Source: a virus
Virus record (IMG/VR): IMGVR_UViG_3300032287_001974
Span: 1-64,000 of that record
Direction: 5' to 3' (one strand)
Length of the DNA stretch: 64,000 bases
Shown here: positions 4,545 through 51,620 of the stretch, one piece after another
Layout of the letters: the number at the start of each line of letters is the position of its first letter
Position numbering within the stretch: the first letter of the stretch is position 1
Made by a program: the position numbers and the translations under genes
The notes under the pieces: generated by a model
The model's input: the letters and a program-made list of their open reading frames with translations, nothing else
The model's database searches: none
What the model was told of the DNA's origin: nothing

Positions 4545-4757
4545 ATGGACCCGAAAGACGACCAGTTCGCTGAACTTCGTAAGCTGCAGAGTGAGCACGA
4601 CCCATCTAACCTAGAAGCATGCCCTGACTGTGGCGCTGCTTCGACTATGGGTAAAGACATCTGGGGCAAGGACGTCAGACTGCATCGTGCAGATCGCGGC
4701 AATGGCATGTATGGCTATGATGTCGTAGACCACAGTAAAGACAAAGACGCCAAGTAA
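4545..4757 (+). CDS. Small hypothetical protein (CPDC)
   Basis: AAGGA RBS. Confidence 0.65.
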   Translation: MDPKDDQFAELRKLQSEHDPSNLEACPDCGAASTMGKDIWGKDVRLHRADRGNGMYGYDVVDHSKDKDAK

Positions 4758-4909
4758 TGTATCCAAATCAGACCCAGACTCCAGGCGCTTCTATGGGCGC
4801 TGCGACCCCAACCGGCGATGAGAGCAGCAAGCCTACTGAAGCCCCAGCCGCCACCGGCTCTGCCCCGCCCATTGCTAGCTCCGCGACTTCTGGCGTTGAA
4901 GGCTACTAA
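4757..4909 (+). CDS. 50 aa low-complexity Pro/Ala/Thr protein (not in track)
   Basis: MYPNQTQTPG...GVEGY; TAATG coupling. Confidence 0.55.
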   Translation: MYPNQTQTPGASMGAATPTGDESSKPTEAPAATGSAPPIASSATSGVEGY

Positions 4910-50805: not shown

Positions 50806-50879
50806 CGCGGTGTGGGGCAGCTCGGTAGTCCGCTAGGCTCATAACCTAGAGATCGCAGGTTCAAATCCTGCCACCGCAA
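50806..50879 (+). tRNA. tRNA-Met (CAT), initiator-like
   Basis: Cloverleaf with CTCATAA loop, C1:A72 mismatch and TTCAAAT T-loop; no encoded CCA. Confidence 0.9.
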
Positions 50880-50895
50880 CGAAAGAAAGTGCAAT

Positions 50896-51039: not shown

Positions 51040-51370
51040 GGGGATGATCGGTTTCGACGGTCATTCGTAAATTGGTGAAGCAAGCAGAGATAGCGGAGTC
51101 TCTTAAAACCGCTAAAAAAATAAATGCTGAATCTCGTTCTGCATTCGCACTAGCTGCCTGATCGTAGTTAGTACCCCCAGGAAAGCAGCAGTTCTAGCTG
51201 GGCACTTGGGTTTTAAATAAATAGAACAACTTGTATCACGTCCATGCTGGAGACGTAAAACTGAAGCACCACAGGATGTGGCAGTTCGGTCCTGGAAATA
51301 TAAACTGCCTAAGCTTGTAGAAGAACAACACACTAATGATCGGACCGGGGTTCAATTCCCCGCATCTCCA
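51040..51370 (+). ncRNA. ssrA: tmRNA
   Basis: 5' GGGGATGATCGGTTTCGAC; 3' GGTTCAATTCC...CATCTCCA with G3:U70; tag ORF at 51126-51161 encodes AESRSAFALAA. Confidence 0.95.
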
Positions 51371-51432
51371 CGCTTGCAGATAAAGGGAGCGCCCAGCGGT
51401 CTGCCCGTCCTAGGCAACGGAATTCTCCCAAT

Positions 51433-51504
51433 TGATCACTAGCTCAACGGCAGAGCAACGAGCTGTTAACTCGAAGGTTCCTGGTTCGAATCCAGGGTGG
51501 TCAG
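51433..51504 (+). tRNA. tRNA-Asn (GTT)
   Basis: Cloverleaf with CTGTTAA loop and G73. Confidence 0.9.
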
Positions 51505-51506
51505 CC

Positions 51507-51580
51507 CGCGGGGTAGGGTAGTTAGGTAATCCGCCAGCTCGACTAGCTGGAAATCGTGGGTTCAAATCCCACCCCCGCAA
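51507..51580 (+). tRNA. Atypical tRNA: fMet-type body with TCGACTA anticodon loop
   Basis: CGCGGGG/CCCCGCA-A acceptor, intact D and T arms, CCAGC/GCTGG stem; the loop lacks U33 and purine 37. Confidence 0.75.
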
Positions 51581-51581
51581 C

Positions 51582-51620
51582 AAAAAAGCCCCAGGCTATA
51601 AACCTGGGGCTTTTTTATTT
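51582..51620. terminator. Bidirectional intrinsic terminator
   Basis: AAAAAAGCCCCAGG...CCTGGGGCTTTTTT between convergent units. Confidence 0.9.

Follow-up and report, generated by a model that had tools for sequence, protein, structure and literature searches.

Why would a phage carry a transfer RNA (tRNA) that joins the body of an initiator to an anticodon for valine? The question was raised by IMG/VR virus record IMGVR_UViG_3300032287_001974, the genome under study (G000), whose first 64,000 nucleotides (nt) make up the window analysed here, and by the tRNA encoded at positions 51507–51580 on its plus strand, which we call the odd tRNA. Bacterial proteins start with formyl-methionine (fMet), brought by one dedicated tRNA to AUG or near-cognate codons; to our knowledge, only engineering has so far produced starts at other codons with a different amino acid. 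From the comparisons described below we consider it probable that the odd tRNA is a functional phage-borne initiator, probably charged with valine, that serves private GUC/GUU start codons through an extended codon–anticodon helix of 4–5 base pairs (bp). With somewhat less assurance, the same comparisons favor a broader reading in which natural orthogonal initiator tRNAs charged with amino acids other than methionine (valine, and probably threonine in one sister phage) serve private starts across diverse phages and hosts, with bases 37 and 38 pairing with mRNA positions −1 and −2.

An initiator body around a valine anticodon

ARAGORN calls the element a tRNA-Val with anticodon GAC (51507–51581) and the Rfam tRNA model RF00005 scores it at 52.3 bits (gathering score 29). 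The first-pass annotation of this stretch had described an acceptor mismatch, intact arms and an odd anticodon loop that could also be drawn as a 6-bp stem with a 5-nt loop, and direct reading of the sequence together with folding proved it correct in every detail. The acceptor 5′ strand CGCGGGG (51507–51513) leaves C1 unpaired, facing A72 (51579) of the 3′ strand CCCCGCA (51573–51579), and is continued by the initiator-type pairs G2:C71 and C3:G70, which are formyltransferase determinants. The discriminator A73 lies at 51580 and the CCA end is not encoded. In the D stem (GGGU/AUCC) the 11:24 pair is G:C, the purine 11:pyrimidine 24 arrangement of initiators, while the T arm reads GUGGG-UUCAAAU-CCCAC. 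The T arm and the acceptor 3′ strand are identical to the 3′ half of genuine initiators: a 27-mer over both is found unchanged in L089, an initiator 3′ fragment ending in CCA, and in L090, a phage tRNA-Met with anticodon CAU. The first of these (L089:14029–14075, minus strand) belongs to a viral contig and spans the anticodon loop through CCA, the arrangement to be expected of an attachment (att) site in a tRNA-fMet gene.

The anticodon arm (51534–51550) departs from this pattern. Its stem is CCAGC/GCUGG and its loop UCGACUA (51539–51545), which we number U32 C33 G34 A35 C36 U37 A38, so that the anticodon GAC (51541–51543) is followed by U37 and A38; these five bases (51541–51545) are the ones discussed below as complementary to UAGUC at a candidate start site. 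C33 and U37 breach two near-universal tRNA rules, U33 and a purine at position 37. In the minimum-free-energy fold U32 pairs with A38, producing the 6-bp stem and 5-nt loop. The three consecutive G:C pairs of initiator anticodon stems are missing, just as the annotation had remarked (29:41 is A-U, 30:40 is G-C and 31:39 is C-G).

The closest natural object is bacterial tRNA-fMet, including the CAU copies carried by phages, with which the odd tRNA shares the unpaired 1:72 position, G2:C71, C3:G70, A73, purine 11:pyrimidine 24 and 27 nt of the 3′ half. It is nevertheless not a strict member of that class, having GAC in place of CAU, the loop UCGACUA in place of CUCAUAA and no run of three G:C pairs, and it would not be expected to be a substrate of MetRS. 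An elongator tRNA-Val(GAC) has in common with it the anticodon, A73 and the likely valyl-tRNA synthetase (ValRS) elements A35 and C36, but would have a Watson–Crick 1:72 pair and a purine at position 37, where the odd tRNA has C1×A72, U37 and an initiator-type acceptor and D stem.

The odd tRNA is not an assembly artefact, a possibility that the first-pass annotation had left standing against its own proposal. An exact copy is present on IMG/VR contig L006, there beside a different tRNA-Asn; metagenome contig L116 has a copy with a 1-nt insertion in the D loop; and in a separate sample (run X2) a contig of 1,146 nt crosses the odd tRNA without gaps at 98.5% identity.

A conserved family in distant phages

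Among 80 relatives of G000 retrieved via a neighboring protein, L006 alone has the odd tRNA, and we therefore searched by tRNA design rather than by kinship. The design pattern, in which only the acceptor stem, the T loop and a GAC anticodon were fixed, was run on viral, metagenome and genome collections. It recovered four further sequence lineages with the loops UUGACUU, UCGACUU and UUGACUA; U37 was present in every one of them though the pattern left position 37 free. A second pattern, free at the anticodon, added L127, which has the body of L112 with UAC, also a valine anticodon. The tRNAs of L118, L241, L114, L127 and L112 score 48.9–56.4 bits with RF00005. Three of four 17-mer arm matches were rejected as chance matches in coding DNA, and the remaining GenBank matches to the tRNA body were ordinary CAU initiators.

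A further set came from Bacteroides phages, whose loci were collected through kinship to a gene close to the L109-type tRNA; most had been missed by the patterns since their T loops differ. All 72 loci with enough flanking sequence have a variant of the tRNA at one syntenic spot, in at least nine sequence forms. The commonest variant is also encoded by the cultured Bacteroides phage BS-TP2 (PQ571275.1, our L219) at L219:4140–4212, where it stands unannotated in a 176-nt gap between gp51 and gp52. Directly 5′ of the tRNA in BS-TP2 (L219:4118–4139), and at the same place in L139–L218, lies a perfect 7-bp hairpin, UAGUACC..GGUACUA, which may be a processing or termination signal.

Taken together, the family comprises at least 14 distinct sequences from five or more phage lineages, carried by a freshwater phage of ~86 kb, Bacteroides phages of ~50 kb, inovirus-like elements of ~7 kb and others. 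In an alignment of 14 sequences, 98.9% of the stem cells are paired, against 41–48% when the partner strand is slid, and compensatory double changes occur at 14 of the 20 pairs, including all five of the anticodon stem and all five of the T stem. C1, G2, C3, A72, A73, U32, A35, C36 and U37 are invariant in all 14. The remaining loop positions vary within narrow limits (U or C at 33; G at 34, with U once, in L127; U or A at 38), giving the consensus U-Y-G-A-C-U-W, and the 11:24 pair is purine:pyrimidine (A:U or G:C) in 13 of the 14. The three G:C pairs are found in no member with GAC or UAC and are present in the sister phage L241. Because pairing and compensation extend over 14 sequences with an invariant loop core, these data point to purifying selection, not decay, acting on the combination of an initiator-type acceptor end, a valine-type anticodon and U37. 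The earlier suggestion that intact stems reflect selection was thus borne out, and the homologues sought in its support, with covarying stems and a conserved odd loop, both exist; the random decay that would have spoken against it was not seen.

Two other kinds of tRNA came up in these searches. Phage initiators with CAU and the three G:C pairs but with U37 instead of A37 are encoded by L125, L128/L134, L137, L138 and L237 (loops UUCAUUU, UUCAUUA and UUCAUUC), so that U37 is not confined to the family with valine anticodons. Separately, at L122:8843–8913 the acceptor stem is of initiator type and the anticodon arm is unusual, possibly with the loop UCUGUUG.

Genes that open with a matching codon

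In the carrier phages, conserved genes that have no usable canonical start appear to open with a codon complementary to the anticodon of the tRNA. The Bacteroides phages supply two of them. The first, gene 1, encodes a small basic protein ~0.5 kb downstream of the tRNA, between ASCH-domain and PAPS-reductase-like genes, and its head reads stop..GA-GTC in 14 of 14 haplotypes, in the divergent L114 and in BS-TP2. The in-frame stop abuts the GTC in three haplotype groups, and in the other haplotypes it lies 3 to at least 7 codons ahead with unrelated sequence between. The first ATG, GTG or TTG comes only 11–19 codons past the GTC, and over the stretch that separates them the protein is kept through synonymous exchanges (AGA with CGC/CGT, GGG/GGA, CCT/CCG). 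Read from the GTC, the protein begins V-A-R-R, where homologues elsewhere begin M-A-R-R. In BS-TP2 this gene is gp53 (L219:~4662–4860), which starts in GenBank at an internal ATG, whereas the conserved frame opens TGA-GTC. Gene 2, also small, lies between ParB-like and small-terminase genes; its head is TGA-GTT for the L109 type and ACA-GTC for L114, with similar N-termini and the first canonical start 6–16 codons in; within the 16-codon extension, three variable sites in the group are too few to decide how it evolves.

The inovirus-like elements L112 and L127 (6.7–7.7 kb; a Zot-family protein is encoded in L115) have a coat-like open reading frame (ORF) ~100 nt upstream of the tRNA that opens TAG-GTC. 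Between the two phages, which are 82% identical, this ORF shows 16 synonymous differences and 1 non-synonymous one, and in the 22 codons ahead of its first canonical start all 7 differences are synonymous. The other well-supported genes of the element all have a canonical start 2–7 codons past the upstream stop. In L118, a 318-aa ORF placed 23 nt past the tRNA has the head TGA-AGG-TGC-TTA-GTC, and its N-terminal motif GSIAGGA, common to homologues that start with methionine, precedes the first ATG. The target proteins matched no Pfam or PHROGs family, and no neighboring enzyme common to the lineages was found. A tblastn search of the small low-complexity targets against GenBank phages returned nothing, probably on account of the low-complexity filter, and pooled counts of GTY preceded by a Shine-Dalgarno (SD) sequence over the other carriers were too noisy to use.

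Two features of the inovirus-like elements are recorded here in their own right. In L115 (5564–8271) and L119 the element is integrated beside host genes for a branched-chain amino-acid ABC transporter, on a 46-kb contig that is part of a metagenome-assembled genome, and the tRNA lies ~1.6 kb inside the L115 element, away from the junction. L112 also encodes, within the element, a DUF3800-V RNA (RF02964, 75.6 bits) at 695–790 on the minus strand.

A further comparison is offered by L241 (reverse complement of GenBank MT839454.1), a gut phage of more distant kinship whose PAPS reductase is 48% identical. Its gene order is the same (tRNA, ASCH gene, two small genes, PAPS reductase), and the small genes (L241:536–941) are homologous to genes 1 and 2 (blastp 2e-9 and 2e-5, in a small set). 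Its tRNA (L241:31–103) has U1×U72, A73, the three G:C pairs and the loop UUAGUGU, with anticodon AGU and G37. Both small genes carry an identical 12-mer, GCTGC-ACT-CGAA, with ACT in frame four codons past the stop, and their first canonical start comes at codon 26 in one and four codons before the end in the other. On the same two gene families, then, GAC with U37 goes with A-GUC and AGU with G37 goes with C-ACU; therefore the anticodon, base 37, the putative start codon and the base at −1 change together.

The correspondence extends one base further. In the lineages with A38 (G000 and L118) the base at −2 is U, which gives UAGUC:GACUA with five Watson–Crick pairs, and in those with U38 it is G or A. 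As part of the reading that we hold probable, U37, together with A38 in G000, would lengthen the codon–anticodon helix to 4–5 bp, and the odd loop would owe its U37 and A38 to this proposed pairing with mRNA positions −1 and −2.

In G000 itself a candidate target begins 5.6 kb past the end of the window. At 69565–69578 the sequence GGAGG-TAA-ATA-GTC heads a 93-aa Gly/Ala-rich ORF with a candidate start at 69576, and the UAGUC at this site is the exact complement of tRNA bases 34–38 (GACUA). Four relatives (G001, G003, G004 and G005) have the odd tRNA nowhere in their genomes and show ATG at the junction of this gene. The target proteins of G000 and L118 have no detectable similarity, and the SD-preceded GTC site of L006 is not common to G000. 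The G000 case is the weakest of the five gene sets. Other hits of the genome-wide screens of G000 were rejected, being either artefacts of frame or unremarkable (67951, with CTG/TTG; 45874, with an ATG downstream). One of these deserves a remark of its own: at 68010–68020, also outside the window, the conserved 340-aa gene at 67951–69024 has CTG in G000 and in the tRNA-less G001, against ATG in G002 and G003, and its start is probably a TTG two codons downstream with good SD spacing.

A different anticodon was seen in L123, L126, L132, L135 and L136, all from IMG/VR sample 3300045988, whose initiator-bodied tRNA has the loop CUCCUUA, anticodon CCU and U37. Several ORF heads in these phages read AGGAG..TTTAA-AGG-G, and AGG is the third commonest SD-spaced head codon (6, against 30 for ATG). 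They may have an AGG-start system; AGG at gene heads is just mildly raised, which makes this a lead and not a result.

Alternatives and proposed function

Several observations weigh against an initiator role at private codons. The three G:C pairs of the anticodon stem, which are important for P-site selection in Escherichia coli, are absent from the family with GAC or UAC, and C33 is left without explanation. The BS-TP2 variant is called by ARAGORN, yet is not listed at the Rfam threshold, and part of the family was gathered with patterns that imposed GAC and the acceptor stem. L127 has the anticodon UAC and its coat-like gene still starts with GTC; a switch from GTC to GTA or GTG between L112 and L127 was looked for and not found. 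Gene 2 of L114 has a non-complementary C at −2, the sole exception to the pairing described above, and some database variants of the target genes have canonical starts upstream. The G000 candidate is the only one in that genome, low in complexity, fast-evolving and absent from relative G002, and its GTC could give way as start to the ATA next to it or to a TTG that lies in frame 7 codons further on. SD-preceded GTC is not enriched across G000 (2 sites, against 3–6 for arbitrary codons), and two screens of G000 for start-less genes against three relatives gave no further cases. The comparison of tRNA absence with methionine-start homologues covers the G000 lineage alone. A single RNA run (X20) had no cover on the odd tRNA, which weighs neither way on expression. 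As to the missing G:C pairs, the extended helix might make up for them.

Of the competing explanations, a decoy survives best, though we regard it as improbable. The charged and formylated tRNA would tie up IF2, formyltransferase or 30S P sites, or absorb a toxin aimed at fMet-tRNA, and would take no part in decoding. The invariant acceptor determinants for formyltransferase and IF2 agree with this proposal, as do the lack of the G:C pairs needed for productive P-site selection and the thin support for target genes in G000. A decoy, however, needs no fixed anticodon, and in the family A35 and C36 are invariant and position 34 is only G or U; nor does it predict start-less genes with a complementary codon in four lineages, or the joint change of anticodon, base 37, codon and −1 base in L241. 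The first-pass annotation had put forward three functions: a decoy for toxins such as VapC, sequestration of IF2 or formyltransferase, and non-AUG initiation. VapC-type nucleases cleave tRNA-fMet at the anticodon stem-loop, which is where the odd tRNA does not mimic it, the conserved part being the valine-type A35 and C36, and the toxin decoy accordingly did not hold up. Sequestration is consistent with the invariant acceptor determinants and leaves both the invariant anticodon and the matching codons unexplained. Only the third function, non-AUG initiation, gained support, from the matched GUC/GUU starts in four other lineages and from the co-change in L241.

Slightly more doubtful is a substitute for the elongator tRNA-Val with a loop altered to escape a host anticodon nuclease, as has been proposed for the tRNAs of T5-like phages. 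Phages are known to encode tRNAs whose altered anticodon loops evade defences aimed at tRNAs (PMC10264068), and an abnormal loop (C33, U37) around a normal valine anticodon fits that pattern; the odd tRNA resembles them in being phage-encoded and in having anticodon-loop nucleotides unlike those of the host. Those tRNAs, however, are elongators that keep their isotype and body, whereas the odd tRNA is initiator-bodied and its anticodon matches special starts. The conserved unpaired 1:72, the CGCGG acceptor and purine 11:pyrimidine 24 would disfavor use by EF-Tu, a 7-kb filamentous element is unlikely to keep a spare tRNA-Val, and escape from a nuclease predicts no link to gene starts, whereas in L241 isotype and gene-head codon change together.

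A role outside the ribosome, as aminoacyl donor for a transferase, as a primer or in the processing or architecture of the RNA cluster, seems to us a little less credible again. It draws on the constant position of the Bacteroides-phage tRNA beside ASCH-domain and PAPS-reductase-like genes, yet no partner enzyme is common to the lineages, G000 has neither neighbor, and the codon matches and the covariation at −1 and −2 would go unexplained. Finally, a pseudogene, that is, a decaying tRNA-fMet duplicate with a scrambled anticodon loop, can practically be dismissed, for although only two other contigs among close relatives of G000 have the odd tRNA and its loop violates two near-universal rules, the pairing, compensation and invariant loop core hold over 14 sequences of distant phages, the L006 copy is identical though the adjacent tRNA-Asn differs, and the stems differ from those of the neighboring tRNA-Met by compensated changes. 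Neither the matching start codons nor the covariation would be expected under any of the four alternatives.

The setting of the gene is an RNA cluster on the plus strand of a freshwater phage (virus record of 85.6 kb, ~97% complete, ~49% G+C), contigs of whose relatives, at 85–95% likeness, occur in two freshwater metagenome runs. The cluster runs from tRNA-Met through a transfer-messenger RNA (tmRNA) and tRNA-Asn to the odd tRNA, its last gene, and ends in a terminator. The tRNA-Met (CAU; 50806–50880; ARAGORN, Rfam and fold) is the normal initiator-like tRNA that had been noticed ~700 nt upstream; it has C1×A72, the loop CUCAUAA and two of the three G:C pairs, and is ~72% identical to the odd tRNA, with differences in all stems. 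The tmRNA (51040–51373, plus strand; ARAGORN; RF00023, 138.5 bits) encodes the tag AESRSAFALAA. Only a few of the close relatives have a tmRNA, and riverine metatranscriptome contigs show high likeness to the tmRNA-like part with a 38-nt segment replaced. The tRNA-Asn (GUU; 51432–51507, plus strand; ARAGORN and Rfam) ends at most 2 nt from the odd tRNA; just CC stands between them (51504–51507), so the 3′ and 5′ ends would be processed at nearly adjoining sites. The terminator (51588–51616) is a G+C-rich hairpin between an A run and a T run, with terminator-like matches on both strands, and with the ORF map it appears bidirectional, sealing the cluster from convergent minus-strand genes. Neither a peptide deformylase nor a formyltransferase is encoded in G000, and the region had no megablast match among GenBank phages.

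For the private-start initiator that we favor, expression, valine charging, formylation and the P-site mechanism are predicted steps, read from sequence features. The odd tRNA would be transcribed together with tRNA-Met, tmRNA and tRNA-Asn, and CCA would be added by the host. The main identity elements of ValRS are A35, C36 and A73, all invariant in the family, and host ValRS would charge the tRNA. In tRNA-fMet, the unpaired 1:72 with G2:C71 and C3:G70 permits formylation and disfavors EF-Tu, and the same features would here allow formylation and exclusion from elongation. IF2 would then bring the tRNA into the P site, onto a GUY codon beyond the reach of the host initiator, and bases 37 and 38 would pair with mRNA positions −1 and −2 and extend the helix. 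One gene, or a few, would thereby have a start codon private to the phage, the candidate in G000 being the gene at 69576. With GUC illegible to the host initiator, such genes would yield protein only in the presence of the phage tRNA; speculatively, the biological purpose might be a timing or insulation switch for expression.

The closest functional analogue would be an engineered one. Initiator tRNAs with mutated anticodons start at matching non-AUG codons, including GUC (PMC11744186), examples being the E. coli tRNAfMet with CUA, or amber initiator, and the GAC and AAC variants (PMC11744186; bioRxiv 10.1101/2021.05.25.445580). They combine an initiator body with a swapped anticodon and start with a non-methionine residue at the matching codon, as the natural family appears to do; they keep the three G:C pairs and A37, whereas the phage family is natural and conserved, with U37 and W38 that match the mRNA at −1 and −2. 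A full-text search, which covered few subscription journals and is not proof, found no published description of natural phage initiator tRNAs with non-methionine anticodons.

Phage suppressor tRNAs accompany the recoding of stop codons and act in elongation. They too are viral tRNAs that alter codon reading for the virus's own genes, but the odd tRNA would act at initiation and on a sense codon.

If this reading is true, phages possess a natural orthogonal initiation system, the rules of initiation are wider than supposed, and some phage genes depend on the phage's own tRNA. A virus would gate a few proteins on that tRNA, and those genes would be silent or mis-annotated elsewhere. Phage gene calling would have to change, given that existing records start gp53 of BS-TP2, and many homologues in the databases, at an internal ATG and leave the tRNA unannotated, and synthetic biology would gain ready parts. 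The covariation of 37 with −1 and of 38 with −2 makes the long-debated idea of an extended anticodon directly testable, and experiments are feasible because the cultured pair BS-TP2 and Bacteroides salyersiae has the system. For the phages, these findings suggest a new layer of gene control, in which expression would be tied to the presence of the phage tRNA.

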